A stretch of DNA of 44,512 nt from a virus. Position 1 is the stretch's first letter, and each line of letters starts with the position of its first letter. Below are positions 1,823 through 31,971 of this stretch, piece by piece. The stretch is from IMG/VR virus record IMGVR_UViG_3300048851_000084, positions 1 through 44,512 of that record; one strand, 5' to 3'. Under the pieces are notes generated by a model that worked only from the letters and a program-made list of their open reading frames with translations, was not told where the DNA came from and searched no databases. The translations under genes were made by a program, and so were the position numbers.

Positions 1823-2098
1823 TCAGCGGTGTTTCGCCTTCAATAGCTCAAAACCTTTTTGCAGGGCTTCGCCCATTTTCATGCCGTGTTGCGCTGCCCA
1901 CACTTTGAGTTCGGCGCGGAATTCGGCGGTGACCTCGGTGTTCAATCCCACTTTGCCGGATTTGGCCGGACGGGCCAGGTTGTTGGTCAGCGCCGGGGTG
2001 TCAGAGACGCCTTTCGGTGGCTCGCCCTTGAGGCTTGCGCGCGCTTTCGGTGGCTTTGGTACGGCGGTGGTGTCGACGGTGTTGGCTGCTTTGGTCAT
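1823..2098 (-). CDS. parG: ParG-like ribbon-helix-helix centromere-binding / repressor protein (91 aa)
   Basis: Sits immediately downstream of parA. Basic, disordered N-terminal half. The C-terminus KVGLNTEVTAEFRAELKVWAAQHGMKMGEALQKGFELL fits a beta-alpha-alpha RHH fold like TP228 ParG. Confidence 0.6.
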   Translation of the reverse strand: MTKAANTVDTTAVPKPPKARASLKGEPPKGVSDTPALTNNLARPAKSGKVGLNTEVTAEFRAELKVWAAQHGMKMGEALQKGFELLKAKHR

Positions 2099-2131
2099 GT
2101 CTGCTGTTTCCTGTGGATCTGTTATCGGTGA

Positions 2132-2776
2132 TTAGGCTGCAAGCTGTTCGATTCGCTCAATTATCCCGCGAATCCACTCGTTGGCCTGTTTTTTCGGCCC
2201 TGGCGCACCTACTTCGGTGATCGCGCGGCCCTGGTCGTGCGCCTGGCTGTAGCAGGTCATAAATGAGATATGCCCCGGCGAAGATTGAAAGCCGGCCTTG
2301 TCCAGATAGATGCGCGCCTCGGCGACGTCGACCTGGCTTTTGCCCATGTTGGTCAGCGGGAACAGAATGCGCGTCGGATCTATGCCGAATTCCTGGACCA
2401 GCGACAACGCCAGGCTAACGCTCGGTTCCAGGTCGTCCAGGCCGGTGCCCGAGGGGATCAGGATCAGGTCAGACGCCTGGGCCACCTCGGCGGTTTCCTT
2501 CGATGAATAGCCTTTGCCGTCGATGATCACCAGGTCGTAATCGTCACGGCCGGCCAGCACGGTGGAAACGTGCGCGTGTTTTTCGATGGCCAGCGCCGGG
2601 GTGATGTCGCGTGCCTGACGGCGCAGGTTCCAGCTGACGGCACTGGCCTGTCCGGGGTCCATGTCGCGCACCACGGTGTTCCATCCGCCTTTCGTGAACG
2701 CCACCCCGACGGCCCGCGCAATCGTGGTTTTGCGGGTGCCTCCCTTCTGCGCGAGGATTGCTACGGTAAACGCCAT
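2132..2776 (-). CDS. parA: ParA-family partition ATPase (type Ib, 214 aa)
   Basis: Deviant Walker A AILAQKGGTRKTT at the N-terminus; start taken at MAFTVAIL (internal ATG of track ORF 2132..3184). Confidence 0.85.
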   Translation of the reverse strand: MAFTVAILAQKGGTRKTTIARAVGVAFTKGGWNTVVRDMDPGQASAVSWNLRRQARDITPALAIEKHAHVSTVLAGRDDYDLVIIDGKGYSSKETAEVAQASDLILIPSGTGLDDLEPSVSLALSLVQEFGIDPTRILFPLTNMGKSQVDVAEARIYLDKAGFQSSPGHISFMTCYSQAHDQGRAITEVGAPGPKKQANEWIRGIIERIEQLAA

Positions 2777-3026: not shown

Positions 3027-3461
3027 CTAACCGCGTGGGTGGTGACGTTTGTTGATGTAGTCCAGGTAGTGCGGGTCCTGCACAGCGGGGCCGCGTGAGC
3101 CTCCGGCCATGATGTCGTAATCCATGGCCTTGCTGTTGGTTGGGATCTGGTGCTGTTTGAAATAGACCACGCTGGACAGCCCAACGATGGCTGCCATTAC
3201 GGCAAAGACCAAAAACGCACGCGCCTGGAGTACACCCAGGGTAAAAGCGCGGGTCAGCATGTGCGCTTTGTTGCGCGCGCCCAGCTTGCCGCGAATGCTG
3301 GCCTCGACGAACGCCATTTCGTCGGGTCTGACGCCGATGGCCTCGGCCGTGGTTGCGCACGGCTCGCCATCGGCCAGGCCGACCAGGTAGCGCAGTTCGC
3401 GACGGTCCAGGTTTTGACCTGGCCGGCCGATAACTTCCTGCCCGGTGATGATGTCCGACAT
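3027..3461 (-). CDS. LuxR/GerE-type HTH regulator with a C-terminal transmembrane helix (144 aa)
   Basis: LDRRELRYLVGLADGEPCATTAEAIGVRPDEMAFVEASIRGKLGARNKAHM matches the LuxR_C HTH pattern. It is followed by the hydrophobic stretch AFLVFAVMAAIVGLSSVVYF. Confidence 0.65.
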   Translation of the reverse strand: MSDIITGQEVIGRPGQNLDRRELRYLVGLADGEPCATTAEAIGVRPDEMAFVEASIRGKLGARNKAHMLTRAFTLGVLQARAFLVFAVMAAIVGLSSVVYFKQHQIPTNSKAMDYDIMAGGSRGPAVQDPHYLDYINKRHHPRG

Positions 3462-4573: not shown

Positions 4574-4708
4574 AGGGGGGTCTGAGGATCCTTAGTGTAA
4601 GAGTTATTCGGTGGCAAACCATATTTGCAATACTACGCATAATTAATACACTTTCTGTTAAGTGATCAAGAAAATGCCAAACAATCGGTAAAATTTCCCA
4701 AAAAAATG

Positions 4709-4737
4709 TTGAAAAACTGGCGTTATGCCGCTATAAA
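4709..4737 (+). promoter_or_regulatory. Putative rightward early promoter (PR-like)
   Basis: TTGAAA-17 nt-TATAAA in the AT-rich cI-proximal intergenic region. Confidence 0.6.
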
Positions 4738-4785
4738 TTTAACTAATTGTTAAGCATTTTCCGATTAGTTGAGTTTTCCTGGCCC

Positions 4786-5804: not shown

Positions 5805-6007
5805 TGGCCCTGCCGTCGTATGCCTACGGTGACCCGGCTTTGATCGCCGAGCGCGACGAGCTGCACCGGATGGGCTGTCGTGCCTGCGTGCGCGCTGAGC
5901 GCGTGCTGGGTGAGTACGTCTGTACAACCTCGCTCAAATACCCGGCGTGCCGGCAAGAGCCCCGCAAGGGTTACAAGCTGCTGGCCAGTGCCGGGGGTGA
6001 GCGGTGA
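5804..6007 (+). CDS. small Cys-rich hypothetical protein (67 aa)
   Basis: TGATG coupling to the upstream gene; four Cys in CRACVRAERVLGEYVCTTSLKYPAC. Confidence 0.45.
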   Translation: MALPSYAYGDPALIAERDELHRMGCRACVRAERVLGEYVCTTSLKYPACRQEPRKGYKLLASAGGER

Positions 6008-6462
6008 GCGCCAAGCCTGGCCGCCTAGAGCGCCGTCTGGATGCCTGGGCGCGCTGGGTGGTATCGGGCGGCCAGGACAAGGCCCCGCCGTCGCTGCTGG
6101 CCCGCTGGATGGCCGGCAAAGGTCACATCGTCTTCGGCGGTGGATCGAGCGCGCCCAGCGACGTGATCGAAACCGTGATCGAGGCGACGGTTATGCAGAT
6201 GTTCGCCGAGGACGCCCTGGGCCAGCTGCGCGCCGATGTGTTGCGCCTGGAGTTCGGCGCCGGATCGCACCAGGTCGCCCAGCGCCGGGGCATTAAGGGC
6301 TTCGATCCGCGCACGCGCAGCCAAGCCAAAATGGCCGAGGCCCTGGGGATCAGTTACCGCACCTATCGCCGCCGCCTGGCGGAAGCCAAAGCCATCGTAA
6401 ACGCTGCATTGACCGCCGCGCTGCCACCTCGGGAGAAAGCCACATGTCCCGCTACAAACTGA
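6004..6462 (+). CDS. Q21/QuuD-like late antiterminator candidate (152 aa)
   Basis: GTGA-coupled start. N-terminal LERRLDAWARWV parallels the LERWGAWA motif of the Phage_antitermQ family. C-terminal HTH-like MAEALGISYRTYRRRLAEAKAIV. Confidence 0.45.
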   Translation: MSAKPGRLERRLDAWARWVVSGGQDKAPPSLLARWMAGKGHIVFGGGSSAPSDVIETVIEATVMQMFAEDALGQLRADVLRLEFGAGSHQVAQRRGIKGFDPRTRSQAKMAEALGISYRTYRRRLAEAKAIVNAALTAALPPREKATCPATN

Positions 6463-6957: not shown

Positions 6958-8160
6958 ATGACCACTATCACCCTGGAAATCTCCGACGCGGCGATTCGCC
7001 GTCATGCCACCGATCCGGCCGTACGAGAGCTGAACGACAGCCGCCTGCCTTATCGCTTCCGTTACGACAAAAAACGCCTGGGCGGGTCCTGGCATATCGT
7101 CAAAAGCATTGAGGGAAAGCCGCGTTGGAAGAAAGCCGGCACCTTCCCCGCACTAACCACCAAGGGCCTGAAAGCTGCGCTGCCGGCGATCATGGGCCGC
7201 CTGTATGCCGACCCCAAAAACGCCAGTGCGGCGGTGGGGATCTACAAAGTGGTGAACGACGTCCTGGTGTGGTTCGAGGCGCGCATGGCCCAGGACCGCA
7301 ACCTGTCGCGCAAGCGCAAAGACACCGTGCGCTCGGCGATTAAATGTCACCTGCGGCCCATGCTTGGGGGCTTTGATCTGTTGGAGCTGACCCGGGGCAA
7401 CCTGGACAGCCAATTACTATGGCCGCTGCAATCGCGCTATTCGCTGGCTCATGTTCGCCTGGTCTGGCAAGTCCTCAAGATGATCAGCAAGCGGGCCCGT
7501 AGTGCGGGAGTGATCGAACAGGACCCGCTGGCCGGGCTCATGTTTACCGACTTTATCGGTGCGTCGATCAATGCCAAGGACTCACGCTTGCGCGCTGCCC
7601 TGGTGCCGGAGCTGATCGCCTCGCTGAGCCTGAACTGGAGCCGTGACCCGTCACAAACAGCCCTGGCGGTACTGATGCTGGCCAACGTCACGCGCCTGGG
7701 CGAAACCCGCCAAGCCAAATGGGCGCACTTTGACGGCATCACCTGGCACATTCCCCAGGCAACCGCCAAAACCCGGGTGTCGCATAGCCTGCCACTGACC
7801 GCACAAATGCTGGCCTTCCTGGAGCGTTACCGGCAGTGGCAACGCTCGACCGGGTACGACGGGGCCTATCTGTTCCCGGGCAAGCGCACCCGCAAGCCCA
7901 TCACCGAACGCCAAGCGTCTGAGCAGTTCGCGCGCCTGGGTGCCGGCGAGTGGACCAGTCACGACCTGCGCAAAGTCGGTGCCTCGACGTTGCTCGACCT
8001 GGGCGTGGATAACCTGATTATCGACCTGCTGCTAAACCATAAGGTCAAGGGTGTGAACCAGGCGTACATCCATACGCATGCCGAGGAACGCAAGCGCGAC
8101 GCCCTGGAACGCTGGCATTCCTGGCTGGATGATCGGGGTTTTTCTGCGCTCGGCCGTTAG
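6958..8160 (+). CDS. int: tyrosine recombinase, P4-type phage integrase (400 aa)
   Basis: Arm-binding-like N-terminus (LPYRFRYDKKRLGGSWHIVK). C-terminal catalytic signature HDLRKVGASTLLDLG...LLNH...YIH. Confidence 0.85.
   Translation: MTTITLEISDAAIRRHATDPAVRELNDSRLPYRFRYDKKRLGGSWHIVKSIEGKPRWKKAGTFPALTTKGLKAALPAIMGRLYADPKNASAAVGIYKVVNDVLVWFEARMAQDRNLSRKRKDTVRSAIKCHLRPMLGGFDLLELTRGNLDSQLLWPLQSRYSLAHVRLVWQVLKMISKRARSAGVIEQDPLAGLMFTDFIGASINAKDSRLRAALVPELIASLSLNWSRDPSQTALAVLMLANVTRLGETRQAKWAHFDGITWHIPQATAKTRVSHSLPLTAQMLAFLERYRQWQRSTGYDGAYLFPGKRTRKPITERQASEQFARLGAGEWTSHDLRKVGASTLLDLGVDNLIIDLLLNHKVKGVNQAYIHTHAEERKRDALERWHSWLDDRGFSALGR
7643..7654. repeat. GTGAC-CC-GTCAC palindrome (13-mer CGTGACCCGTCAC)
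   Basis: Inside int; encodes RDPS. Confidence 0.9.
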
Positions 8161-9183: not shown

Positions 9184-9422
9184 GCCCTGTCGCTATGCAA
9201 AGCCTGCGCACTGTCGCGGCGGCGTCCCCTGCGCATGTCCTGTTGTTCACAGGGCCGGGCGTGTCCGATGAGCTACGCGACGAGCTGGTGGCCTATCTGG
9301 TGTTCCTGAGGGTCGAGGGTGTGACGATTACCGCTGAAAAATACTTAGAGCGCGGCCAGGTGATCGCCACGGCGCCGCCGCCGCCCCTGGCGTGGCCTGT
9401 TGGTGGCGAGTGCGTGCTGTGA
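9180..9422 (+). CDS. hypothetical protein (80 aa)
   Basis: ATGA-coupled ORF. Confidence 0.45.
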   Translation: MSPVAMQSLRTVAAASPAHVLLFTGPGVSDELRDELVAYLVFLRVEGVTITAEKYLERGQVIATAPPPPLAWPVGGECVL

Positions 9423-9775
9423 ATCGCCCGGCCGAAGCAGATCCGCGCAGCCCCGAGGCCATCCGCAAGGAGGCCCAGCGCCTGCGCGAGATTGGCCTGG
9501 GCATCGAGCGCCGGGAGGTCAAGCAGTCGGCCCGCGAGCGCGACGTGGCGGACTTCTGCGCCCAGGTGCGCGGCGGTGATACGCCCTACACGTTTAACGA
9601 ATACGTCAACACGCTGATTCGTCGGGACTATGACAGCCTGCTGGAACAGCTCAAGACCCTGAACGCTTCAACCTGTGAACAGTGCGGACGCATTCCACCC
9701 ACGGTCTGCGGTGGCCGCTTTCCTGGATCTGCCAGCTGCTGGGCTCTGCGCGGTCGCTGGGATCTGATGCTGTGA
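9419..9775 (+). CDS. hypothetical protein (about 118 aa; alternative start at 9392)
   Basis: GTGA-coupled start; Cys cluster CEQCGRIPPTVCGG near the C-terminus. Confidence 0.45.
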   Translation: MNRPAEADPRSPEAIRKEAQRLREIGLGIERREVKQSARERDVADFCAQVRGGDTPYTFNEYVNTLIRRDYDSLLEQLKTLNASTCEQCGRIPPTVCGGRFPGSASCWALRGRWDLML

Positions 9776-9783
9776 CTGGTCAC
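9772..9783. repeat. GTGAC-TG-GTCAC palindrome containing stop codon TGA 9773-9775
   Basis: Read directly; shares the 13-mer GTGACTGGTCACA with 15928. Confidence 0.9.
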
Positions 9784-9841: not shown

Positions 9842-9870
9842 TTGACAGCGGTGGCCACGTCCTTTACGAT
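9842..9870 (+). promoter_or_regulatory. Strong sigma70-type late promoter (PR'-like)
   Basis: TTGACA-17 nt-TACGAT. An AT-rich upstream region carries TTACAAAT direct repeats at 9791 and 9831. Confidence 0.65.
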
Positions 9871-9945: not shown

Positions 9946-9967
9946 CCGGCCACCCAGGCCGGTTTTT
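9946..9967 (+). terminator. Leader terminator 1
   Basis: CCGGCC-accca-GGCCGG-T5, about 90 nt downstream of the predicted start site. Confidence 0.6.
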
Positions 9968-10035: not shown

Positions 10036-10065
10036 GCCCGGCTCCCACTGGCCGGGCTTTTTTTT
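10036..10065 (+). terminator. Leader terminator 2 (tR'-like)
   Basis: GCCCGGC-8 nt-GCCGGGC-T8, about 190 nt downstream of the predicted start and immediately before the holin RBS. Confidence 0.75.
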
Positions 10066-13233: not shown

Positions 13234-13881
13234 ATGGCCTTAGTCAATCAAGCGGAATTCGCCCGATTGATGGACGTTTCCCGCAAAACAGTCACGACCT
13301 GGAAAGCCGCGAATCTATTGGTTTTGGCCGGTGGTTTGGTCGACGTCGAGGCGTCCAAAAAGGTCCTGCAAAAATACCGCCGCGACGGCGTCCCGTCTGT
13401 TACCTCGGACACGGCGAAGTCGCGCAAGAAATCCCCGCCAGGTAACAGCGCGGGTAACGCGAAAAAACGCGCACCAGGTAACACGGCGCCGCCGCCGAAA
13501 ACGCCCCGCAAACGACCCCCCGCCAAGCCCGACACCCTGGAGTGGGAAGCCGAGCGCGAGCTGGAGCTACGCGGCGCAAACCTGAGCCTGTTAGAGGCCA
13601 AGCGGGTCAAGGAAAACTATCTGGCCCTGCTGCGCGAATTGGAATACCAGGAGCGCACCGGATCCCTGGTCGACCTGGACCTGGTCAAGCGGGTGCTGTT
13701 TGAAGAACACCGCGCCCAGCGTGATGCCTGGCTTAACTGGCCAGCCCGCGTCGGGCCGCTGATCGCCGCCCTGTTTGATCTGGAGGCCGACAAGGTTGTA
13801 GGGGCGCTAAATGAGCATGTCCACAAGCACATTACCCAGCTCGGCGAACCCGCGCTCGACCTCGACGCTGAGCAAGACTGA
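13234..13881 (+). CDS. terS: terminase small subunit, Nu1-like (215 aa; track start TTG 13216)
   Basis: N-terminal winged-HTH MALVNQAEFARLMDVSRKTVTTWKAANLL; basic linker; immediately precedes terL. Confidence 0.65.
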   Translation: MALVNQAEFARLMDVSRKTVTTWKAANLLVLAGGLVDVEASKKVLQKYRRDGVPSVTSDTAKSRKKSPPGNSAGNAKKRAPGNTAPPPKTPRKRPPAKPDTLEWEAERELELRGANLSLLEAKRVKENYLALLRELEYQERTGSLVDLDLVKRVLFEEHRAQRDAWLNWPARVGPLIAALFDLEADKVVGALNEHVHKHITQLGEPALDLDAEQD

Positions 13882-15931
13882 CCAGGTACGCAAGGCCATC
13901 CGCAAGGGCTGGACACCGCCGCCACGCATCAGCGTGCCGGACTGGGCCGACCGCTTTCGCGTGTTGGCCAAGGAAGCCGGCAGCACGTCAGGCAAGTGGT
14001 CAACGGCTACGGTGGAGGTCGCACGCGGCCCCATGCTGGCCGTGACCGAACCAGGGGTGCGCACCATCACGGCGATGGTCAGCACCCAGCTACTCAAAAC
14101 GGCGATGCTGGAGAACATCACCGGCTTTTTTGCCCACCTGGACCCCTGCCCGATCCTGCTGATTCAGCCCAAGGAAGCGGCGGCCGAGCAGTTTTCCAAA
14201 GAGCGAATTTCTCCGCTGATCCGGGTCACACCGGTCCTGCGCGAGATCATGGGCAACAAGGGCAAATCGCGCTCAAGCGACGAAACGCTGCTGTACAAGG
14301 CGTTCCCGGGTGGCTTCCTGGCCCTGGCCGGTGCGGGCAGCCCCGACAACCTGGCGCGCCGCCCGATCCGGGTCGTGCTGTTCGACGAGGTCGATAAGTA
14401 CCCGATCACCCGCGAGGGCGAGCCGATCCCCATCGCCGAGGAACGCATGGCCACCTTCGGCGCTAACTCGCTGTCGGTGCGCGTCTGTTCCCCCACGGTC
14501 GACGAGGAAAGCCGGATACAGGCCAGTTACCTGGATTCGGACCAGCGCCGGGCGTCCCTGGCATGCCCAGGCTGCAACCACCGCCAGTTCCCCGACTTCC
14601 ACAAGCATGTCGTGTGGGACAAGAACGGGGCCACGCACCTGACCAAAACCGCGCGCATCTATTGCGAGGCGTGCGGGCTGGGCTGGTCCGAAGGTGACCG
14701 CCTGCAAGCGTTGACGACGGTGCGCTGGCACCAGACGCGGCCCTTCGATTGTTGTGATCAGCATGTGCTGCCGCTGGATCTGTACGAGCAGCGCCGCGCC
14801 GTCTCGGGCCTGGCCGCCGTGGATGAGGTATGGACCTGGACGCACAGCGACCGTTTTGCGGTTTACATGGCCCGGTGTCCGAAGTGCGGCGACCATCCGG
14901 TGAGCAACGAACACGCGGGTTTCCAGGCGGGGAAATTATTCAGCCCCTGGCCCAAGGACAAGCCGGCCGACATTGCCCGCAAGTGGATCACCGCCCAGGG
15001 CAACGAAGAAATGTTGCAGGTCTGGTACAACACCCAAATGGGCCTGCCCTACCGCAAACACGCGGGTAAAGAGATTCGCGTGGCGCGCCTGCTGGAGCGT
15101 CGCGAAGTGTGGGCTGCCGATATTCCCGACGGCGTCACCGTGCTGACCGTGGGCATCGACGTGCAAGCCTACCGCCTGGAATTGGAGCTGGTCGGCTGGG
15201 GCATGGATGAGGAATCGTGGTCGATTGACTATCACGTCATTGAAGGCGAGATGTCAGACCCCGAGACGCAAAAGGCCCTGGACGCTTACCTAAAGCGGAT
15301 CTGGTATCGCGCGGACGGTCGACCGTTCACCGTCAAAGCCGCGTGCATGGACTCGGGCGGTAACCATACCCAGGACGTCTACAAGTTCTGCAAGGCGCGG
15401 ATCGGTCGCAAGATATGGGCGATCAAGGGCGAGTCGGCCACCAGTGGCCAACGCAACCCGGTCTGGCCCGTCAAGAAGCCCAACAGCCGCAACAAGTCGG
15501 CCTATCGGCCGATCATGCTGGGCGTCAACGCCGGCAAGGACAGCGTGTCGCAACGCCTGCAAAAGGACGCGCCTGGCCCGGGTTACATGCACTACCCGGT
15601 CACCCGCGACCTGGGCTACTTCGAGCAGCTGACCGCCGAACGCTCGGTGGTCAAGTTCAAGGGCACCCACCGTTACCGCGTGTGGGAATTGCGCCCAGGG
15701 CGGGCCAACGAGGCGCTGGACTGTCGCGTGTACAGCTACGCGGCATTGCAGGGCCTTATTCACGCCGGCTACCGCCTCAACGCCGAAGCCATCGCCATCG
15801 CCAAGACCATTGGCCCGACGGTCGCCCGTCTGGTCGAGCCGGAACCTGTCCAGGACGTCGTCCAGGAACAGGCGGCAGCGCCTGAACCGCCGCCGATCAA
15901 ACGCCGGTCGCGCGCCAGTCGCCTGGCGTGA
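13811..15931 (+). CDS. terL: terminase large subunit, lambda gpA family (706 aa)
   Basis: GWTPPPRISVPDWADRFRVL...GKWS...PMLAVTEPGV and overall gpA-like length and layout. The start is uncertain because it overlaps terS. Confidence 0.9.
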   Translation: MSMSTSTLPSSANPRSTSTLSKTDQVRKAIRKGWTPPPRISVPDWADRFRVLAKEAGSTSGKWSTATVEVARGPMLAVTEPGVRTITAMVSTQLLKTAMLENITGFFAHLDPCPILLIQPKEAAAEQFSKERISPLIRVTPVLREIMGNKGKSRSSDETLLYKAFPGGFLALAGAGSPDNLARRPIRVVLFDEVDKYPITREGEPIPIAEERMATFGANSLSVRVCSPTVDEESRIQASYLDSDQRRASLACPGCNHRQFPDFHKHVVWDKNGATHLTKTARIYCEACGLGWSEGDRLQALTTVRWHQTRPFDCCDQHVLPLDLYEQRRAVSGLAAVDEVWTWTHSDRFAVYMARCPKCGDHPVSNEHAGFQAGKLFSPWPKDKPADIARKWITAQGNEEMLQVWYNTQMGLPYRKHAGKEIRVARLLERREVWAADIPDGVTVLTVGIDVQAYRLELELVGWGMDEESWSIDYHVIEGEMSDPETQKALDAYLKRIWYRADGRPFTVKAACMDSGGNHTQDVYKFCKARIGRKIWAIKGESATSGQRNPVWPVKKPNSRNKSAYRPIMLGVNAGKDSVSQRLQKDAPGPGYMHYPVTRDLGYFEQLTAERSVVKFKGTHRYRVWELRPGRANEALDCRVYSYAALQGLIHAGYRLNAEAIAIAKTIGPTVARLVEPEPVQDVVQEQAAAPEPPPIKRRSRASRLA

Positions 15932-15939
15932 CTGGTCAC
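15928..15939. repeat. GTGAC-TG-GTCAC palindrome containing the terL stop codon
   Basis: Read directly from the sequence. Confidence 0.9.
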
Positions 15940-15949
15940 ACAACCATAA

Positions 15950-15971
15950 GCCCGCCCCGTGCGGGTTTTTT
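15950..15971 (+). terminator. Terminator-like hairpin after terL
   Basis: GCCCGC-cccgt-GCGGG-T6. Confidence 0.55.
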
Positions 15972-15984
15972 ATTGGGGGCCTTT

Positions 15985-16254
15985 ATGCGCCGTTCTTCTT
16001 CACCTTCGGTCAGCCTGCTGGCCGGTCGGCCGGTTGCCCAGCTGCAAAGCGACCTGGCAGCCGCGCAACAGGCCTATATCGAATTGTCGACCGGGGCCAA
16101 GGTGGCAAACGCCACCTACGCCCAGGGCGCGGGCAGTCGTTCGGTCAGCTACAGCCAGGCCGATATCGGCGCTGTGCAAGTGCTGATCCGTACCCTGCAA
16201 CAGCAACTGGGCATCGTTGACCGTGCCCGCGCTCCCATTCGGCCGGTGTTCTGA
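15985..16254 (+). CDS. gpW-like head-tail joining protein (89 aa)
   Basis: LQSDLAAAQQAYIELSTGAKVANATY...SVSYSQADIGAVQVLIRTLQQQLG parallels lambda gpW; sits between terL and the portal gene. Confidence 0.65.
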   Translation: MRRSSSPSVSLLAGRPVAQLQSDLAAAQQAYIELSTGAKVANATYAQGAGSRSVSYSQADIGAVQVLIRTLQQQLGIVDRARAPIRPVF

Positions 16255-19438: not shown

Positions 19439-20128
19439 ATGTCCCTGACCCCCACTGTGATGGGCGATAACGCCCAAGTCCCTGGAATTTCCGCTGTCGC
19501 TTACCGCCCTGATCAGCTCATTGCCGATTCGCGCACCCTGATCAGCGACATGGTCGTATTGGGTGCCGGCACCTACAAACGCGGCCAGGTCTTCGGCCTG
19601 GTGTCCGTCGCGGCCGTAGAGGCGGCGCCAGGCGCGGCCAACGTCGGTAACGGCAGCGTCGGTGCCCTGGCGAGCAAATCGCAGAACACCGGCGCGTATA
19701 CGCTGACCGCGACCAGCGCGACCGAGTTTGCGGTGGCCAGCCCCGAAGGCGTCGCCCTGGGCGTCGCTACGGTCGGTGCCGCGTTTACCAGCGCCGACAT
19801 CGCCCTGACCGTCTCGGCCGGTGCGACTGCCTTTGCACCTGGCGACGTGTTCACCGTGACCGTGTTCGATGCGGCCGGCATCTATGTGCCGAGCGTGCGC
19901 ACCGCCACCGACGGCAGCCAGGACGCCAGCGCGATCCTGGCCGACGACGTCACCCTGGCGGTGCCGGGCAAGGTCGGCGCGTACTTCGCCGGCGAATTCA
20001 ACCTTAACGCGTTGATTCACGATGCCAGCTGGTCGCCGTCGTTGCTCGCCGCTTCCCTGCGCAAACACGGGATCTACGCGAAATCGTCGATCAGCGCGGC
20101 GGCCCCGTTGAACAACTCGGCGCCGTAA
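19439..20128 (+). CDS. head decoration protein, gpD-like with a central insertion (229 aa)
   Basis: LIADSRTLISDMVVLGAGTYKRGQVFG and the C-terminal AILADDVTLAVPGKVGAYFAGEFN resemble gpD family ends; sits directly before the major capsid gene. Confidence 0.55.
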   Translation: MSLTPTVMGDNAQVPGISAVAYRPDQLIADSRTLISDMVVLGAGTYKRGQVFGLVSVAAVEAAPGAANVGNGSVGALASKSQNTGAYTLTATSATEFAVASPEGVALGVATVGAAFTSADIALTVSAGATAFAPGDVFTVTVFDAAGIYVPSVRTATDGSQDASAILADDVTLAVPGKVGAYFAGEFNLNALIHDASWSPSLLAASLRKHGIYAKSSISAAAPLNNSAP

Positions 20129-20242: not shown

Positions 20243-21340
20243 ATGCCTGACGCGAACACCCCGAACCTTGCGTTTACCACGGTCGACCTGATCCAGGTCG
20301 TGCCTACCCTGAAACGGCCGACCAAGTTTTTGCTAGACCGTTTTTTCCCGCAAATTCAGGTTTCCGAAACTGAATACGTGGCCATCGACATCGACGTGGG
20401 CAAGCGCCGTATCGCCCCGTTTGTCAGCCCCCTGGTCGAGGGCAAGCTAGTCGAGCAGCGCGGCCGTCAGCTCAACCTGTACAAGCCGCCGTACATCAAG
20501 GACAAGCGCGCCCCGGATCTGCGCAAACCGGTCATGCGCCAGATCGGCGAGCGCATCGGTGGCGGTCAGCTCAAGGGCGCCGAGCGCGAAATGGCCAACA
20601 TCAATTTCGAGCTGAACGACCAGATCGACATGATCGACCGTCGTATGGAATGGATGGCCGCGTGTGCGCTGCAAACCGGGCAAATCATCGTCGAGGGTGA
20701 AGGCTTTCCCACTGAGGTGATCGACTTCGGCCGTGACCCGTCACTGACCGTCGCGCTGACCGGCAACAAGCAATGGGGCGTGCCGGCGAACTTCGACGAG
20801 AACGGGTTTGACCCGATCCCGCAAAAGTCGATTGAGCGCTGGCAGCAACGCATTCTGCGCCTGTCGGGTGCCCAGGCCACTGACCTGGTGTTTACGACCA
20901 GTTCCTGGGAATGCTTCATCAACGGTTCGGCGATGCAAGGCGCGATCAAGTTTCCAGCGCTCAACACGGCCGGCAACACCATCAACCCGGGCGCGCAAAT
21001 CGCACCAGGCGCCGTTTACAAAGGCAAATGGGGCCAGTACGACCTGTGGATTTACAACGAGTGGTTCGTTGACGAGGACGGCGTAGAACAGCCGATGCTG
21101 GAAGACGGCAGCGTGCTGATGTGCGGTCCCGACCTGATGGGCATTCGCGCCTTCGGCATGATCATGGACCCGGCTTTCAATTACGAAAGCATGGCCTACG
21201 CGCCTAAAACCTGGCTGCGCGAGGATCCGGGCCAACGCATGATGATGATGCAAGCCTCCCCCCTGGTGATCCCTTCCCGCGTTAACGCTTCGCTGTGCGC
21301 CGTTGTCTGCGCGCCCCTGCCTGATCTGGAGAACGAATAA
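20243..21340 (+). CDS. major capsid protein, lambda gpE family (365 aa)
   Basis: N-terminal FTTVDLIQVVPTLKRPTKFLLDRFFPQ...IDIDVGKRRIAPFVSP is characteristic of Phage_cap_E. Confidence 0.85.
   Translation: MPDANTPNLAFTTVDLIQVVPTLKRPTKFLLDRFFPQIQVSETEYVAIDIDVGKRRIAPFVSPLVEGKLVEQRGRQLNLYKPPYIKDKRAPDLRKPVMRQIGERIGGGQLKGAEREMANINFELNDQIDMIDRRMEWMAACALQTGQIIVEGEGFPTEVIDFGRDPSLTVALTGNKQWGVPANFDENGFDPIPQKSIERWQQRILRLSGAQATDLVFTTSSWECFINGSAMQGAIKFPALNTAGNTINPGAQIAPGAVYKGKWGQYDLWIYNEWFVDEDGVEQPMLEDGSVLMCGPDLMGIRAFGMIMDPAFNYESMAYAPKTWLREDPGQRMMMMQASPLVIPSRVNASLCAVVCAPLPDLENE
20733..20744. repeat. GTGAC-CC-GTCAC palindrome (13-mer CGTGACCCGTCAC)
   Basis: Inside the capsid gene; encodes RDPS. Confidence 0.9.
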
Positions 21341-25146: not shown

Positions 25147-27259
25147 CTTCAAGATCACGATTGACGCGGTCGACAACGCCACGGCCGTTTTCCGCAAGGT
25201 TAACGGCGCGGTCAATCAGCTGTCGCGGCCGTTTGAGCAGGTCGGCCAGTCGTTCAAGGGCCTGGGCCGGGAAATGGGTTTGCAGCGCCTGGGCAAGAAC
25301 CTGGGCAGCATTGGGCGCGAGGCGCGCGGCGCAGCCTCGGGGGTGACCTCGGTGGTCGCTCCCCTGGCGGCGATCACCGGCGTGGGCTCGGTGGCCGGGA
25401 TCATCGCCCTGGCCGATGGCTGGGCGCGCCTGGGCCGGTCGACCGCGAACACGGCGGCCAACATCGGCGCCAATGCCGGCGACCTGCAACGCTTCCAGGG
25501 CGCTGCGCGCCTGGCGGGCCTGTCGACAGACGACATGGATAGCAGTCTGCAAGGCCTGGCCAGCACCATGGAAAACGCCGCGTTCGGCCGGGATAACAGC
25601 GCGTTAATGCTGTTCAACCGCCTGGGGGTGGGCATCAAGCGCACGTCCGACGGTGCGATGGACGCAACCGGCGAATTCAAGGCGCTGGCCACCGCCATCA
25701 GCAACCTAAAGAACCCGCAACAGCAAATGCTGGCCGCGCAGAAATTCGGCCTGACCAGCCTGCTGCCGCTGATTCGCCAGGGGCCGGAGGCGTTCGACCG
25801 GCTGACCGCGCGGGCTGAGGCGATGGGCCTGGTCATGTCGGGATCTGCGCTCAAGGCAGCAACCGACTTTGCCAACAGCCTGGACAACCTACAGGGCGCC
25901 GGCACCGGGCTGAAAAACTCGGTGATCGAGCAGCTGACCCCGGCGCTGAAACCCCTGGTCGACGAGCTGGCCGGCTGGATCGGGCAAAACCGCGAGCTGA
26001 TCGCCCAGGACGTCGGTGCCTGGGCGCGGGACTTCGCCACCTGGGTCAATGGGGTGGACTGGAAATCGGTGGGCCAGGGTGTGCATGGCTTCGTCAGCGA
26101 CATCGGCACCGTGGTGGACAAGCTTGGCGGCTGGAAGAACGTGGCCATCGGTGTGGGCATCGCCATGAATGCCGGGCTGATCGCCAGCGTTGCCACCCTG
26201 GGCATCAGCCTGGCGCGTGGCGGTGTGGGCATCCTGTCGTTTATCGGCCTGCTGTCCCGCTGGAAATGGGCATCCAACGCGGCCAAGGTGGCCACGCTGG
26301 AGACGGCAGCGGCTGCCGAAGCGGCAGCGGCGCGCGAGGCGGCGGCAGCACGCGGGGGCCTGCTGGGCGCCGGCCTGCTGACCACCGCCGTGGTGGGCAC
26401 ATCGCTGGCTTTGTCCGGCGATCAGGATCAGGGCGAACGTGACGCGCGAACCCTGGAAAACCGCGCCATGGCCGGGGATCGAGGCGCCGCCCTGGCGTTG
26501 GCCAAGCAACAGCTGTCCCACTGGTATCAGCCGACGCCATCGAGCAAGGACATCGAGCAGCGCGCCGACGACATCGGCAGCGGCCGCCAGGCCGGCTACT
26601 CGCCCGAGCTGATGGCCAAGCTGCACCCGCAACACGCGGACGCCGAAAAGCAGCTGACCGGCATCGAGCAGAAATATCAGCTGCCAGCGGGTTTGCTAGA
26701 CAAGGTCTGGAACCAGGAGTCGAGCCGAGGCGCGGCGCTGCTGTCGCCCAAGGGGGCCAAAGGTCATTTCGGCTTTATGGACCCGACCGCCAAGCAATAC
26801 GGCCTGACGGACCCTAACAACTTTGCGGAGTCGGCCGACGCGGCGGGCCGCATGTACCGGGATCTGTTGAAGGCCAACGGCGGTAACCTCGACAAGGCGT
26901 TGGCCGCCTACAACTGGGGCCAGGGCAACCTCGACAAAAAGGGCCTGGAGCAGGCCCCGGCCGAAACCCGGCACTACATCCACGACATCAAAAGCGGAAT
27001 GCAGGCCGAGCGCGGGCAAGACGCCCCGACGCAAACCTGGGTCAAGCCTGAGCGCGCCCAGGCCGCGCCGGAGCAAGCTCCACCGGAGCAGGTCGCGCCG
27101 CAAGGCCCGGTCAGCACCGAGAAGGCGCAACCCCAGCGGCACGCCTTTGACGTGACGTTTAACGGGCTGCCAGCCGGCACCACCGCCAAAGTGAGGTCGA
27201 AGACGGGCGCCGACGTGGATTCCAGAATCGGCTATTCAGGCATAGGGGCCATCGCATGA
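25136..27259 (+). CDS. tape measure protein with a lytic transglycosylase (SLT) domain (707 aa)
   Basis: Ala/Gly-rich helical protein. SLT motifs VWNQESSRG...GHFGFM...AAYNWGQGN at about 26670-26960. Confidence 0.85.
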   Translation: MASSFKITIDAVDNATAVFRKVNGAVNQLSRPFEQVGQSFKGLGREMGLQRLGKNLGSIGREARGAASGVTSVVAPLAAITGVGSVAGIIALADGWARLGRSTANTAANIGANAGDLQRFQGAARLAGLSTDDMDSSLQGLASTMENAAFGRDNSALMLFNRLGVGIKRTSDGAMDATGEFKALATAISNLKNPQQQMLAAQKFGLTSLLPLIRQGPEAFDRLTARAEAMGLVMSGSALKAATDFANSLDNLQGAGTGLKNSVIEQLTPALKPLVDELAGWIGQNRELIAQDVGAWARDFATWVNGVDWKSVGQGVHGFVSDIGTVVDKLGGWKNVAIGVGIAMNAGLIASVATLGISLARGGVGILSFIGLLSRWKWASNAAKVATLETAAAAEAAAAREAAAARGGLLGAGLLTTAVVGTSLALSGDQDQGERDARTLENRAMAGDRGAALALAKQQLSHWYQPTPSSKDIEQRADDIGSGRQAGYSPELMAKLHPQHADAEKQLTGIEQKYQLPAGLLDKVWNQESSRGAALLSPKGAKGHFGFMDPTAKQYGLTDPNNFAESADAAGRMYRDLLKANGGNLDKALAAYNWGQGNLDKKGLEQAPAETRHYIHDIKSGMQAERGQDAPTQTWVKPERAQAAPEQAPPEQVAPQGPVSTEKAQPQRHAFDVTFNGLPAGTTAKVRSKTGADVDSRIGYSGIGAIA

Positions 27260-28686
27260 AAGGCTGGGTCAAACAGCTAAACCCCGCGTCGTTCCGTGGG
27301 CTGCGCTTCGGGGTCCTGGGCGGTGAGGCGCGATTCGGTCGACGCCTGGCCGTCCACGAATACCCTGGGCGCGACAAGCCCTACGCCGAGGACATGGGAC
27401 GCGGCACCCGGGTGGTTAACCTGGTCGGATTCCTGATCGCTGACAGCCTGGTCTATGGCGGCGGCGACGTGATGGAACAGCGCGATCTGATGATAGGAGC
27501 GGCGGAAAAGGCCGGCCCTGGAATCCTGATCCACCCAACGCTCGGCCAATTGGTGGTGTCCATCCCCGAGGGTGGCCTGTCGATTGTCGAGCGCTGGGAC
27601 GAGGGCCGTTACTTCGAGCTGCATTTCTCGTTCATCGAGTCCGGCGACCGCGTGTTCCCGACGACCAAGCCCGACAGCCGTTCGTTCCTGGGCCAGGTGC
27701 TGAGCGCCCTGGGCCTGGACGCGGCGGCCGACTTTGTCGGGTCCGTGGAGGCCGCCGTTAGCACGGTATTCAAGGCGATTAAGATCGCCGAGGGGGTCAT
27801 TAGCGACGCCCTGGACATGGTGGAATCGGTGATCGAGGTCGGTCAGTCCGCGGTCAATGCGGTGATTGATACGGTCGCGGCATTTCAGCAAATCGTCGGG
27901 CGGATATCGCACGATGCCAGCCAACTGAGCAGCCTGGGCAGCCTGTTAACCGGCGACTACGGCCGCTATACGTCCGGGGCGACCACCAGCGCCCTGCGGC
28001 AAAGCCAGAAAGGGTCGGATTCATCGGCGGACTTGGCGGCCGTGATCGCGGCCAACGTGGTCAAACGTGACGCTGTCACCCGCGCATCGGCCACCCTGGC
28101 AGCGGCTGCGGCCAACTTTGGCGGGGGCACGTTGCCGGTGTTCATCAAGGCCGCCCAGGACCTGGTCGCCGCCGTAGCGGCGGGAATTGCCACCCCGGCC
28201 GATCAGATCCGCCTGCTGACCGAGCTGGCCAGCTTCACCCGGCCCGACTACGCCAGTACGTCGCAGATCGGCCAGGCCAAAACGGTCGCGCAATACGTCA
28301 CCGCTGCCCTGCTACGGCGCGCCGCGCTGGGCCAACTGGCCACGGCATCGAGCAACTACGCACCGACCTCCTACGATGACGCGGTGCGGGTGCGTGACAC
28401 CGTCGTGGGGCTCATTGAGGCGGAAATGCTGATTGCCGGCGACATGGGCGACGATGCCACCTACGGCAGCCTGCGCGACTTGCGCCGTGCGGTCATTCAG
28501 GACCTGGACGCACGCGGGGCCAGCCTGGCGCCGCTGGAGGTGTTCACGGTGCGCGACAGCCTGCCGTCCCTAGTCCTAGCGAATCGGCTGTACCAGGACC
28601 CGAACCGCTCTGATGAGCTAATCGGGGTGGCTGACCCCATCCACCCGGCGTTTATGCCGGCAAGTTTTCGCGCGCTTAGCAGCTGA
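27256..28686 (+). CDS. DNA circulation protein (Mu gpN/gp43-like, 476 aa)
   Basis: N-terminal PASFRGLRFGVLGGEARFGRRLAVHEYPGRDKPYAEDMGR is the DNA_circ_N signature. Confidence 0.85.
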   Translation: MKGWVKQLNPASFRGLRFGVLGGEARFGRRLAVHEYPGRDKPYAEDMGRGTRVVNLVGFLIADSLVYGGGDVMEQRDLMIGAAEKAGPGILIHPTLGQLVVSIPEGGLSIVERWDEGRYFELHFSFIESGDRVFPTTKPDSRSFLGQVLSALGLDAAADFVGSVEAAVSTVFKAIKIAEGVISDALDMVESVIEVGQSAVNAVIDTVAAFQQIVGRISHDASQLSSLGSLLTGDYGRYTSGATTSALRQSQKGSDSSADLAAVIAANVVKRDAVTRASATLAAAAANFGGGTLPVFIKAAQDLVAAVAAGIATPADQIRLLTELASFTRPDYASTSQIGQAKTVAQYVTAALLRRAALGQLATASSNYAPTSYDDAVRVRDTVVGLIEAEMLIAGDMGDDATYGSLRDLRRAVIQDLDARGASLAPLEVFTVRDSLPSLVLANRLYQDPNRSDELIGVADPIHPAFMPASFRALSS

Positions 28687-28706
28687 CGCCCCGTCTGGAA
28701 TTCCCC

Positions 28707-29789
28707 ATGTTTGATAACGATGTGACCGTGATCGCGGGCGACCAGGTGCTGACCGGCTGGACTGATGTGCGGATTACACGCGGCATCGAGCGCCTGCCCA
28801 GCGATTTCAATCTGTCCATGTCGGACGTGACACCGGGCACGCTAAACGCTGTGGTGGTCCGCCAGGGCGACGCGGCCCAGATCAAGATCGGCGACGACCT
28901 GGTGATCACCGGTTACGTGGATCGCATGATCCCCGGGTATTCCAAACAATCGCACTGGATCCGCCTAGCCGGTCGGTCGAAATGCGCCGACCTGGTCGAC
29001 TGCGCGGCCGAATGGCCTGGCGGGCAAATCAGCGGGGCCAATGCCCTGGTGATCGCGCAGAAACTCGCCTCGGTCTATGGCATGAACGGCGAAGGCATCC
29101 CGGTGGCCAGCAACGTGACCGACCTGCCGATGATCCCCCAATTCAACCTGCTGAACGGGGAAAGCGCGTTTGAAATCATCGAGCGCATCAGCCGCTATTC
29201 CGCCGTGCTGGCCTACGACCTGCCCGACGGTAGCCTGTTCCTGAGTCGCCTGGGCACCACCTACACCGAGGGCGGGTGTCGTGAAGGGGTCAACGTAGAG
29301 AGCGCCTGGGTGGAAAACTCCGCCGATGCGATCTACAGCAACTACGACGCCCTGTTGCAATCGATGGACGTCCTGGGCGACCTGGGCGACAGCGGGAACC
29401 TGATCTACAGCGCCACCGACCCGAACTGTCAGCGGCATCGCCGGCTGATCCTGATTGCCGAGGCGGCCGGGGGCGGCCTGGACATCGTCAAACAGCGGGT
29501 GTTGTGGGAAGCGTCACGACGCAGCGGGCGCAGCCAGGTGGTGCGCCTGGTCGTCGATTCCTGGCGCGATGCGGCGGGTGTGCTGTGGACGCCTAACACC
29601 CTGGTGTTTGTCGAGCTGCCGACCCTCAAGTTTACCGGCGACTGGTTGCTGCTGTCGGAGGTGACGTATTCGCTGACCGAGGAAGGCCACCACGCCGAGC
29701 TAACCCTAATGACGCCGAGCGCGTTTGAACCTCAACCGGTGCAACTACAGCCGGTCCTTGCGGAGTTTTCCCATGGGCTCAACTACTGA
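28707..29789 (+). CDS. baseplate hub / tail protein (Mu gpP, gpD-like, 360 aa)
   Basis: [31 protein letters not shown]...VITGYVD...[11 protein letters not shown] pattern. Confidence 0.75.
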
Positions 29790-30348
29790 CGGGCAACTGT
29801 CGCGGATTTGGCGGCGCGTCCAGCTGGCCGTCGGCCGTGGCCGGATCACATTCAGCAACGACGCCGGCAACGTGCAAGCGCTGCAAGTGCGTCTAGGTCA
29901 GCTGGAGACGCGCGACGGCACGCCGCGCCTGGGTGAGTTTGGCCACGCCTCACGGCCGCCAGTGGGGGCCGACGTGGTCGCGGTGTTTGCTGCCGGCAAT
30001 CGCGCCGACGGCGTGGTGATCGCCACCGGGCATCAGGCGTCACGCCCGCGCGGCCTGGCCGAAGGCGAAAGCCAGCTGTATGACCTGTGGGGCAAGTCGG
30101 TTTATCTGACCAAAGACGGCGGCATTGTGGTGGAGGCCAAGGGCACGCCGGTCACGGTCAATAACGCCACGGTGGTGACCATCAATGCCAGCGACTCGGT
30201 GGTGATGAACACCCCGCTGTTGAAGGTCAGCGGCAACATTGAGGCCGGGGGTGACATCACCGACGGCGTGCGCAGCATGGCAGCCGACCGCGCGATTTAT
30301 GACGGCCACAACCACGGGGGCGGCCCAGCGCCGGCACAACAGCAATGA
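29773..30348 (+). CDS. baseplate assembly protein V / spike (Mu gp45-like, 191 aa)
   Basis: Internal ATG of track ORF 29725..30348; [15 protein letters not shown]...[14 protein letters not shown]...GHNHGG. Confidence 0.75.
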
Positions 30349-30788
30349 GTGACATCAAAACCGTCTGGATGGCCGACACGGGCCAGGGCGATTGGACGAT
30401 AGCCGACGGCGCCCTGGCCAGTTCCGACGACCTGGGCACGGCGCTACTGATCAGCCTGTTTTCGGATCGCCTGGCGGATGGCGACGACACCTTGCCCGAC
30501 GGCAGTACCAACCGGCGCGGCTGGTGGGGCGACCTGGACCAGGACGTGCCCCTGGGCTCCCGCCTGTGGCTGCTGTCGCGCTCAATCCTCGACGATGACG
30601 TGGCCAAGCTGGCCGTGATCTACGCCAAGGAGGCCTTGCAATGGATGATCGACGACAAGGTGGCCGAGTCCGTGACCGTCACGGCGACCCCGGACGGACG
30701 CAAAACCCTGGTGCTTGACGTGACTGTCACGCGCAAGACCGGCACCCAGTCGTACCGCTACGGCTGGGCCTGGGCTTCGGAAGCCTGA
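30345..30788 (+). CDS. baseplate protein GP46 family (147 aa)
   Basis: [22 protein letters not shown]...[15 protein letters not shown]...RRGWWGD. Confidence 0.8.
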
Positions 30789-30808
30789 TCCATTTCCCCC
30801 GCATCACG

Positions 30809-30831
30809 ACCGCCTAACGGCGGTTTTTTTT
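30809..30831 (+). terminator. Terminator-like hairpin after the gp46-like gene
   Basis: ACCGCC-taac-GGCGGT-T8, then GCCTGGAG RBS. Same layout as the tR'-like site at 10036-10074. Confidence 0.6.
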
Positions 30832-30846
30832 CGCCTGGAGTTTCTT

Positions 30847-31971
30847 ATGCCATATCCACGCCCGGCCCTGTCCGAGCTGCGCGCGCAGGTCGCGTCTGAC
30901 CTGACGGCGGGGCTTAAAACGGTCGACGGCCTGTTGCGGTTTTCTAACCTGGGCATCCTGGGCACCAGCGTGGCCGGCCTGTCCCATCAGCATTACGGGT
31001 ATCTGGCCTGGATCGCCAAGCAGGCCACCCCCTACACGGCGACCGGTGAGTATCTGGAAGCCTGGGGCGGGCTGAAAGAGGTTTACCGCGAGGGCGCCAC
31101 CTTTGCACGGCTGCGTGCGACATTCCTGGGCGTGGCGGGTAAGGTCCTGCCCCCGGGCACCGAGGTGGCCCGGAGTGACGGGGTCTACTACCTGACGGCC
31201 GCCGAGGCCAAGGTGGCCGGCGACGGCACGTTGTCGGTCGACATTGTGGCCCGCGACTCGGGGACGGACGCCAACGCCAGTGCGGGCACCCTGGTGACGC
31301 TCGCCGGCGTGGCCGACGGCATCCAGTCCAGCGGCGCCGTGACGGACACGGTCGCCCTGGGCACCGCCCTGGAGCTGGACGAGCCTTTCCGCACGCGGGT
31401 CCTGACCGCCTACCAGGCCAAGGCGCGCGGCGGGGCTATCGACGATTACCTGGTGTGGGCATTGAACGCCACGGGCGTCACCCGCGCCTGGGTGAAACCC
31501 CTGGGCGCCGGCCCGGGCACGGTGGTGGTCTACGTCATGTTCGACGTGGTCAATATCGACAATGACGGGTTTCCCACCGGTGGTAACGGCCTGTCGGCCC
31601 TGGACTCACGCGTCACGGCGGCATCAATGGCAAAGGGGGATCTGTTGTCGGTGGCCGACGCCGTGTTTGCCAGCCAGCCGGTCACCGCCCTGGTCTACCT
31701 CTGCGCGCCGACGCCTTCGCCGGTGCCCTTCACCATCACCGGGCTGGCCACGTCGTCGAGCAGCATGCGCGCCGCCATCGCCCAGGCGATTGCCCAGGTC
31801 ATGGTCGACCAGGGCGCGCCGATTGAAGGCACCGACGTGGATCTGTCCGCGATTGAATCGGCGATTGCGGCTATCGCCGGCACGGCCGGGTTTGTGATCA
31901 CCAGCCCAGCCGGCAACATTCCCAACCAGCGCGGCTACCTGCCAACCCTGGGGACGGTGACCTATGGCTAA
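30847..31971 (+). CDS. baseplate J-like protein (Mu gp47-like, 374 aa)
   Basis: Position, size and N-terminal PALSELRAQVASDL pattern. Confidence 0.8.
   Translation: MPYPRPALSELRAQVASDLTAGLKTVDGLLRFSNLGILGTSVAGLSHQHYGYLAWIAKQATPYTATGEYLEAWGGLKEVYREGATFARLRATFLGVAGKVLPPGTEVARSDGVYYLTAAEAKVAGDGTLSVDIVARDSGTDANASAGTLVTLAGVADGIQSSGAVTDTVALGTALELDEPFRTRVLTAYQAKARGGAIDDYLVWALNATGVTRAWVKPLGAGPGTVVVYVMFDVVNIDNDGFPTGGNGLSALDSRVTAASMAKGDLLSVADAVFASQPVTALVYLCAPTPSPVPFTITGLATSSSSMRAAIAQAIAQVMVDQGAPIEGTDVDLSAIESAIAAIAGTAGFVITSPAGNIPNQRGYLPTLGTVTYG

Follow-up and report, generated by a model that had tools for sequence, protein, structure and literature searches.

A short invariant palindrome dispersed over a family of phage-plasmids as a candidate site for a DNA-binding protein

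Why would unrelated genes of one virus take their stop codon from one and the same palindrome? The question is raised by the IMG/VR virus record IMGVR_UViG_3300048851_000084, a stretch of 44,512 nucleotides that was analysed at its full length and is referred to below as the window. The window is the genome of a temperate Pseudomonas phage-plasmid, and the palindrome, GTGAC-NN-GTCAC (GTGACNNGTCAC), recurs in it at gene ends and within genes. Here, we describe the frequency, spacing, symmetry, positions and conservation of this motif across a family of related elements. We propose, with moderate confidence, that it is recognised by a dimeric protein that binds DNA sequence-specifically and that, once bound, most likely works as an operator or roadblock to insulate or co-regulate the transcription units of the phage-plasmid.

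The window holds 7 exact copies of GTGACNNGTCAC, starting at 737, 7643, 9772, 15928, 20733, 34872 and 40383, and 4 copies with one mismatch, among them ATGACCGGTCAC at 1503. Shuffles of the window that preserved its dinucleotides gave a mean of 0.05 copies and a maximum of 1, so the original prediction was right in placing the 7 copies far above chance. Palindromes with a spacer of one base (N1) arise from coding sequence in this genome and dinucleotide shuffles can therefore underestimate the background, for which reason the codon-aware control that the original prediction had proposed was run. When synonymous codons were shuffled gene by gene, leaving all proteins unchanged, the two-base-spacer (N2) motif occurred a mean of 0.23 times (maximum 2), shuffling the codon order yielded a mean of 0.02, and a count of 7 was reached by 0 of 2000 codon-aware shuffles of either kind. 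Together with the conservation in relatives described below, these controls rule out a codon or composition artefact as the origin of the N2 motif. The N1 variant GTGAC-N1-GTCAC occurs 5 times in the window (5715, 22083, 23199, 30672 and 30720), each time as GTG ACC GTC ACG, i.e. Val-Thr-Val-Thr, against a mean of 1.2 in synonymous shuffles, only 2 of 2000 of which reached 5; it is largely protein-driven, with a mild excess left over. Other repeated palindromes of the window (GGCCA-N3-TGGCC and similar) probably also come from coding sequence or composition.

The same enrichment is seen across the family, where 18 genomes combined carry 67 exact sites against 0.61 expected from base composition, orthologous sites being non-independent events in this as in all other cross-genome counts, and a P. 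aeruginosa phage-plasmid (CP124676.1) adds 4 sites to the 67. The spacing is strict: in ~300 kb of the Pseudomonas clade the half-sites are separated by two bases 51 times, by one base 11 times and by three bases once, with 0 to 1 copies for each other length, and 292 kb of phages sharing only the structural genes with this clade hold 3 N2 copies. Because the base preceding the motif is C or T in 95% of the 67 aligned sites and the base following it mirrors this as a purine, the actual site is a 14-bp dyad, YGTGAC-NN-GTCACR. In the literature searched, none of six variants of the 12-mer was found in a microbial context.

Where the copies lie at gene ends and in front of genes, the window is laid out as follows (positions refer to the window, and the palindromic sites are given without a strand).

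1503-1514, no strand: one-mismatch site ATGACCGGTCAC; TGA 1504-1506 is the stop of open reading frame (ORF) 1255-1506.
1823-2776, minus strand: type Ib partition (par) operon, with ParA at 2132-2776 (214 amino acids) and a ParG-like ribbon-helix-helix protein at 1823-2098 (91 amino acids).
9392-9775, plus strand: last early gene, g9392, phrog_536 'transcriptional regulator' with a Cys4 C-terminus, ending in the motif.
9772-9783, no strand: exact site GTGACTGGTCAC; TGA 9773-9775 is the stop of ORF 9392-9775, the last gene of the early operon.
9842-9870, plus strand: late promoter-like element TTGACA-17-TACGAT, near-consensus sigma-70, 59 bp downstream of site 9772.
9946-9962 and 10036-10057, plus strand: two terminator-like hairpins, 3' of the late promoter and ahead of the holin gene.
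15928-15939, no strand: exact site at the end of terL; TGA 15929-15931 is the stop of terL 13811-15931.
15948-15968, plus strand: terminator-like hairpin and T-run, 9 bp beyond the terL-end site and kept in most relatives.
34872-34883, no strand: exact site; TGA 34873-34875 is the stop of ORF 34219-34875, the last tail gene, encoding a tail-assembly-chaperone-like protein.
37889-37900, no strand: site with one mismatch, GTGATCTGTCAC, placed 20 bp before the ATG of gene 37921-38457.

The list of ORFs bears out most of what the original prediction had said of these places: TGA codons within the motif terminate four genes (the stops end at 1506, 9775, 15931 and 34875), sites 9772 and 15928 have the 13-mer GTGACTGGTCACA in common, and a late promoter-like element does follow just past site 9772. 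The succession of this promoter and two hairpins suggests antitermination control of the late genes. A role of site 9772 as a class I activator site for the late promoter was rejected, the distance from the site to the -35 element varying from 31 to 59 bp among relatives. Site 1503 lies ~30 bp upstream of a bidirectional terminator and faces the par operon's 3' end; the operon closing at 1506 begins at 37921 and crosses the circular junction, and its label 'early' is an assumption. Site 37889 lies directly 3' of three 8-bp TGTAG repeats, in an operator-like placement.

The remaining exact copies lie within genes.

737-748, no strand: exact site within a small gene at ~653-844, read as V-T-R-H.
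7643-7654, no strand: exact site within the tyrosine recombinase gene, read as R-D-P-S.
20733-20744, no strand: exact site within ORF 20243-21340 (likely the major capsid protein, no annotation), read as R-D-P-S.
40383-40394, no strand: exact site within the 76-amino-acid ORF 40298-40528, read as R-D-P-S.

One 13-mer, CGTGACCCGTCAC, thus supplies the R-D-P-S codons of the recombinase, the ORF 20243-21340 product and the 76-amino-acid protein, which are unrelated to one another, and this identity argues for selection on the DNA and not on the protein. The motif has TGA in one frame on both strands, as had been predicted, and for this reason that frame is closed to it within a gene; with 87% of the genome coding, a boundary site is then cheapest on top of a stop codon. 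The overlap with stop codons is better read as a by-product of putting a TGA-containing site on a gene boundary, with no function of its own, and in this way the motif accounts for unrelated genes taking their stop codon from one palindrome. The bidirectional translational stop that the original prediction had offered as a possible role is likewise better taken as a by-product, as many kept sites are intragenic or intergenic, or follow TAA or TAG in relatives.

The comparison with related phages that had been suggested together with the shuffled controls shows that the sites are kept and that homology often breaks exactly at a site. The relatives, labelled R1-R6 or with L-numbers, were taken from IMG/VR and other assemblies, and ~10 of them are close, at 67-84% nucleotide identity or 52-99% recombinase identity. 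At orthologous positions the ten specified bases are unchanged, the central NN (TG, CG, TT, AT, AC, TC and others) and the flanks vary, and the complete genomes of the Pseudomonas clade carry 7-8 copies each. The site at the early/late junction, orthologous to 9772, is present in 6 of 6 relatives covering the region as well as in L040, L042, L045 and L057. The terL-stop site is found in all 7 genomes that cover it (the window and R1-R6), and its ten bases are invariant in these and in L040, L042 and L045, around an NN of TG, CG, TT or AT. The tail-end site 34872 is kept in R1 and R3 at 69-73% local identity, the R1 copy being intergenic and following a TAA stop. Two sites that have one mismatch in the window are exact in relatives, namely the ortholog of 1503 beside the par operon (R1, R2 and R3) and the ortholog of 37889 (R1, GTGACTAGTCAC). 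The intragenic site 737 recurs in the homologous gene of R1 and L040, site 7643 is exact in R2 and R3 and has one mismatch in R1 and R5, and site 20733 is exact in R1 and R2 and broken in R4 and R6. Additionally, R1 has one site between the -35 and -10 elements of its parA promoter. Overall, ~55-60% of the 50 Pseudomonas-clade sites supply the stop of an ORF that bears a coding signature, and at more than half of the sites the motif overlaps UGA followed by C.

Exact copies extend to distant members of the family, with 2 each in the Vibrio phages VPHZ6 and PE002A, 3 in K303, 2 in Aliivibrio phage H905 (a genome of 42.5% G+C), 2 in an Aeromonas veronii plasmid, 5 in a Serratia plasmid and 4 in the P. 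aeruginosa plasmid. Nearly all members, those from Pseudomonas, Vibrio, Aliivibrio, Aeromonas, Serratia and P. aeruginosa included, have one position in common, in the interval that separates the last early gene from the lysis/late promoter. At this junction the site gives the TGA stop in PE002A, the P. aeruginosa plasmid and the Pseudomonas clade, and elsewhere the motif stands just after a TAA or TAG stop (the R1 tail end, VPHZ6 and PARCL1pr). Sites flank or precede the par operon in the window, R1, L040, VPHZ6, PE002A and CP124676.1; VPHZ6 and PE002A carry a copy immediately past a terminator, 110-140 bp upstream of parA, and CP124676.1 has an exact site at a position comparable to 1503 of the window. 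The Serratia plasmid pJSRIV006_2 (L060) carries two tandem pairs of GTGACATGTCAC with the copies 22-23 bp apart (19640-19673 and 35535-35569), one pair before the holin gene and the other flanked by a small gene and by a Rha-family regulator gene's 3' end. Terminator-like hairpins lie within 40 bp of 14 of the 67 sites, compared with 6% of genome positions, a figure in which orthologous sites are again non-independent. A Halomonas member has no copy of the motif even when two mismatches are allowed, and at the early/late junction Delftia and PARCL1pr share a remnant with one mismatch, GTGACNNGTAAC; the Halomonas and Delftia/PARCL1pr members have lost the motif or are in the course of losing it. 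In motif-negative distant relatives the terL stop lies in no alternative palindrome, and terL directly abuts gpW.

Some features of individual members were recorded alongside. The clinical member P. aeruginosa CP124676.1 (L061) contains two copies of a Tn3-family mercury-resistance transposon, at ~26400-32530 and 40640-47900, and one of these splits the tail-sheath gene, so that the element is probably a defective phage persisting as a plasmid. In Aliivibrio (L054:9275-9628) and Vibrio (L055:21373-21687) a small gene begins 20-30 bp downstream of the palindrome; its product resembles a serine recombinase catalytic domain and lacks the usual YxRVS(T) serine motif. The element L013 (IMGVR_UViG_2740892492_000002; terL 64% identical) has no GTGAC motif and carries an 18-bp perfect palindrome, GTGGGACCGCGGTCCCAC, five times, at 630, 886, 4219, 5059 and 5233, each time in intergenic DNA of its early region, perhaps as a comparable system of dispersed sites with a different sequence.

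The element itself is a complete genome. Bases 1-127 of the window equal 44386-44512, a 127-bp terminal duplication that marks a closed circular contig and hence a full genome of ~44.4 kb, with 63% G+C. Its gene content includes a LexA/CI-like repressor, a lysis cassette, a lambda-type terminase, gpW, a portal protein and a contractile tail, as well as a tyrosine recombinase inside the early operon whose named homologs come from Pseudomonas; other genes have homologs in P. lurida and in a P. fluorescens-group isolate. The relatives on deposit are non-mobilizable plasmids of 36-52 kb (Pseudomonas, Aeromonas, Edwardsiella, Serratia, Vibrio, Delftia and Halomonas) together with Vibrio and Aliivibrio phages, and from this the window is assigned to a widespread phage-plasmid family with roughly 110 genomes. 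No near-identical phages were found in INPHARED, an exact-protein contig look-up with terL gave no match, and tRNA and Rfam scans of the window found nothing. Direct repeats with an 8-bp period (CTAC plus a 4-bp AT-rich spacer, or TGTAG on the opposite strand) lie at ~2794-2893 in the parA promoter and at ~37845-37869 before gene 37921; these CTAC-N4 arrays are kept in the closest relative (L038:6530-6640) and are reminiscent of the tetramer-box centromere/operator found in type Ib (ParG-type) partition systems. A Rep-like gene at 35989-36996 adjoins iteron-like repeats. At 37204-37235, ~200 bp downstream of this gene, two 12-bp direct repeats, TTAAGTGGG(A/T)CC, stand 20 bp apart next to a third degenerate copy and may mark a plasmid replication origin with iterons. 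ORF 1255-1506 belongs to an 83-amino-acid family, phrog_22090, present on >100 Pseudomonas plasmids including cryptic ones of 4-7 kb, where its gene lies in a small operon and adjoins an unnamed gene. In the CI operon, ORF 3027-3461 (minus strand) encodes a LuxR/GerE-like helix-turn-helix with a C-terminal transmembrane segment, is kept from Pseudomonas to Vibrio members and would be unusual as a membrane-anchored DNA-binding protein in a lysogen.

The strict spacing, the extended dyad, the invariance without covariation, the tandem pairs and the promoter positions together look like the site of a dimeric protein. Of the roles that the original prediction had named for the palindrome, protein binding is accordingly the one we favour, in view of the 2-bp spacing, the 14-bp dyad, the invariance across genera, the operator-like positions and the Serratia pairs, whose spacing equals two helical turns. 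The sites occupy the junctions of transcription units, that between early and late genes and often one beside the par operon, and in the Pseudomonas clade also those after terL and the tail genes and two promoters. We infer from this that a protein may bind there and that its binding would act on the late operon above all, and in addition on the par operon and the operon beginning at 37921. The bound protein could, for instance, silence the lytic modules during expression of the genes for lysogeny and plasmid maintenance.

Two proteins of the window other than g9392 deserve attention as candidate binders.

6004-6462, plus strand: g6004, with a C-terminal helix-turn-helix like sigma region 4.
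37921-38457, plus strand: a protein that looks like a basic stretch followed by a ribbon-helix-helix and a coiled coil, with the palindrome in its own promoter.

Of the helix-turn-helix proteins, the g6004 family alone occurs in all the motif-bearing genomes examined, and its structural model (predicted local distance difference test score, pLDDT, of 74) is like sigma region 4 domains and weakly like the Q21 antiterminator. The 37921-38457 protein has a weak match to 'plasmid repression protein F' over residues 50-88 in a search of NCBIfam that otherwise gave nothing, and its homologs occur only in R1, R3, partly R2 and L035. The g9392 family always adjoins a site in motif-bearing members and has a variable putative beta-strand; as a binder it is weakened and not sufficient, for a homolog is found in an Aeromonas jandaei P2-like prophage that has no motif. 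Sequence searches of the PDB with g6004, g9392 and the ParG-like protein gave no match. A CI-like repressor was rejected, the CI-cro region at 4574-4746 having no copy, likewise in relatives. The ParG-like protein is disfavoured because its beta-strand varies while the palindrome is constant (KVGLNTEV, KVPVNF, RVLINVGF and REMFSVGL for the DNA-reading strand among genomes with an identical palindrome) and because it has CTAC-N4 arrays of its own at the parA promoter. The family of ORF 1255-1506 (g1255) was dismissed on account of homologs on 4-7 kb Pseudomonas plasmids that have no motif, and the integrase, g4747, g5400 and g3027 went undetected by BLAST in the motif-rich Serratia member. MatP has no homolog encoded in the window, the best hit of a phmmer search with E. 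coli MatP (checked against PDB 4d8j) against all six-frame ORFs of the window having E = 2.7. A host factor common to these gammaproteobacteria is a possible binder.

Several observations weigh against an operator or roadblock bound by a dimeric protein. No binder was found among the candidates examined, the CI-cro intergenic region has no site, and the only shared helix-turn-helix family, that of g6004, also has homologs in the motif-free Halomonas member and in Delftia, which retains the one-mismatch remnant only. The half-site centres are 7 bp apart, a distance uncommon among helix-turn-helix dimers and more in keeping with ribbon-helix-helix proteins. Conserved sites lie deep in integrase, capsid and portal genes, where a roadblock to elongation would be costly in lytic growth, and the non-independence of orthologous sites noted above tempers the counts.

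The plasmid nature of the element, with its type Ib ParA, ribbon-helix-helix partner and Rep-like gene and with 36-52 kb plasmids as relatives, would also suit dispersed centromere or genome-organisation sites of a plasmid prophage, bound by a partition or organiser protein of the SopB/N15 or matS/MatP kind. Sites are near the par operon in six genomes and distributed over the entire genome, the half-sites are identical to those of matS, and SopB-type dispersed sites on phage genomes are on record (PMC3177203). This explanation is nevertheless unlikely in our view: the ParG-like DNA-reading beta-strand differs among genomes while the palindrome is identical, the parA promoters have 8-bp arrays of their own, the usual type Ib centromere/operator, there is no MatP homolog, the spacer is 2 bp and not 3, and the sole universally kept site is at the late promoter and not at par. 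By analogy with matS, the sites might be landmarks for an organiser protein encoded by the phage (e.g. 37921-38457) or the host, which would position the plasmid or expel SMC (structural maintenance of chromosomes) complexes such as MukBEF, MksBEF and Wadjet from it, as MatP-matS does for MukBEF; we hold this to be very improbable, and if true it would mean that a ~40-kb plasmid is shielded from SMC-based plasmid restriction. The motif also holds two GTSAC units, and some Vibrio and Aeromonas relatives encode DNA methyltransferases, as might be expected of a word belonging to a restriction-modification, methylation or other host system, or of a word frequent in host genomes. This is highly improbable, given that no methyltransferase was found among the window proteins scanned, that other Pseudomonas replicons (four small plasmids and one 41-kb conjugative plasmid) have no copy, that the number of sites per family member ranges from 8 to 1 within one genus, and that strict 2-bp spacing and fixed positions would not be expected of such a word.

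The original prediction had further considered a boundary or recombination sequence between mosaic modules, and as a description this stands, in that sites do lie at transcription-unit junctions. Homology among relatives often stops exactly at a site, upstream sequence being kept and downstream sequence unrelated, and one early module is joined at the site to three late modules (lambda-like terL with a contractile tail in the window, an HK97-like siphovirus module in PARCL1pr, K303 and Delftia, and a lambda-like siphovirus module in Serratia). That the motif exists for recombination, as a linker kept since exchange there swaps whole modules including the stop codon, is the part that does not hold well: a stretch of ten specified bases is not long enough for homologous recombination to be efficient, the prospect of later recombination cannot keep >60 sites invariant, and the intragenic sites, promoter sites, tandem pairs and strict dyad are left without account. 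We therefore regard such a linker as improbable, and the use of the junction by modules more probably follows from the presence there of a conserved functional site. The least probable explanation is a function in RNA, with a hairpin on the stop codon affecting termination, coupling, UGA-C read-through, processing or antiterminator loading. The frequent overlap with UGA-C, the sites preceding terminators and the GTG at the terL end, which could couple to the downstream ORF, all fit with it, but the hairpin of 4 bp plus tetraloop (-2.7 to -4.3 kcal/mol) is no better than that of shuffled sequence, the stem never covaries and its sequence is invariant, and many sites are intergenic, in promoters, or after TAA or TAG. 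Moreover, read-through of terL reaches TAA after 5 codons, and the gpW domain begins ~38 codons into ORF 15928-16254. The motif alone also lacks the stable GC-rich hairpin and U-tract of an intrinsic terminator, and separate terminators adjoin some sites.

If the site is indeed that of a dimeric operator or roadblock protein, one invariant 14-bp sequence marks operon junctions across a whole phage-plasmid family, including clinical P. aeruginosa mercury-resistance plasmids, and it would belong to a conserved and previously undescribed regulatory or maintenance circuit apart from the CI-type immunity switch. The motif can be used as a signature of the family, as a probe for the binding protein and as a set of defined positions for mutation.

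Among known systems, the closest precedent is provided by the stoperators of cluster A mycobacteriophages (L5, Bxb1 and TipsytheTRex), which are likewise dispersed copies at gene ends and in promoters. In the L5 type, many short sites lie in promoters and short intergenic spaces and are thought to stop both initiation and elongation (PMC9283540). A stoperator is an asymmetric 13-mer, oriented with transcription, to which the immunity repressor binds as a monomer, whereas the site described here is a perfect 14-bp dyad; stoperators co-vary with immunity, whereas here the CI/early promoter has no copy and the site is invariant although the CIs are only 25-70% identical. Phage P1, also a plasmid prophage with dispersed sites, has one repressor, C1, with many scattered operators, but these are asymmetric 17-mers at promoters and C1 is the primary immunity repressor.

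Centromere sites of the SopB type are dispersed over phage genomes (PMC3177203). Those of N15 are, like the present motif, short palindromes scattered on a plasmid prophage and not arrayed beside the par genes, but they are 16-bp sites of a type Ia ParB, whereas the par system here is of type Ib, with a varying partner protein and repeat arrays of its own. The omega repressor/ParB of pSM19035 is a ribbon-helix-helix protein that works with a type Ib ParA, binds 7-bp heptads WATCACW in promoter arrays of 7-10 at several separate sites and has a dual role in regulation and partition. The 7-bp register and the TCAC core are alike, and the motif amounts to two divergent heptads; it differs in having only two units per site, strictly divergent and mostly at gene ends. 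SlmA-binding sites, GTGAGTACTCAC, share the form of a 12-bp dyad GTGAx-NN-xTCAC and differ in the fifth and eighth bases; they belong to chromosomes, and the window showed no TetR-like protein.

The half-sites GTGAC/GTCAC are identical to the pentamers of E. coli matS, GTGACRNYGTCAC, which is bound by MatP (PMC6907758). Both are short dyads in few dispersed copies; matS is a 13-bp site with a 3-bp spacer (RNY), whereas the spacer here is 2 bp (51 cases to 1) and no MatP-like protein is encoded. MatP is not known in Pseudomonas. Dispersed sites in temperate phages are thus familiar, and what sets the present site apart is its perfect dyad symmetry, its independence of the immunity repressor and its invariance across genera.

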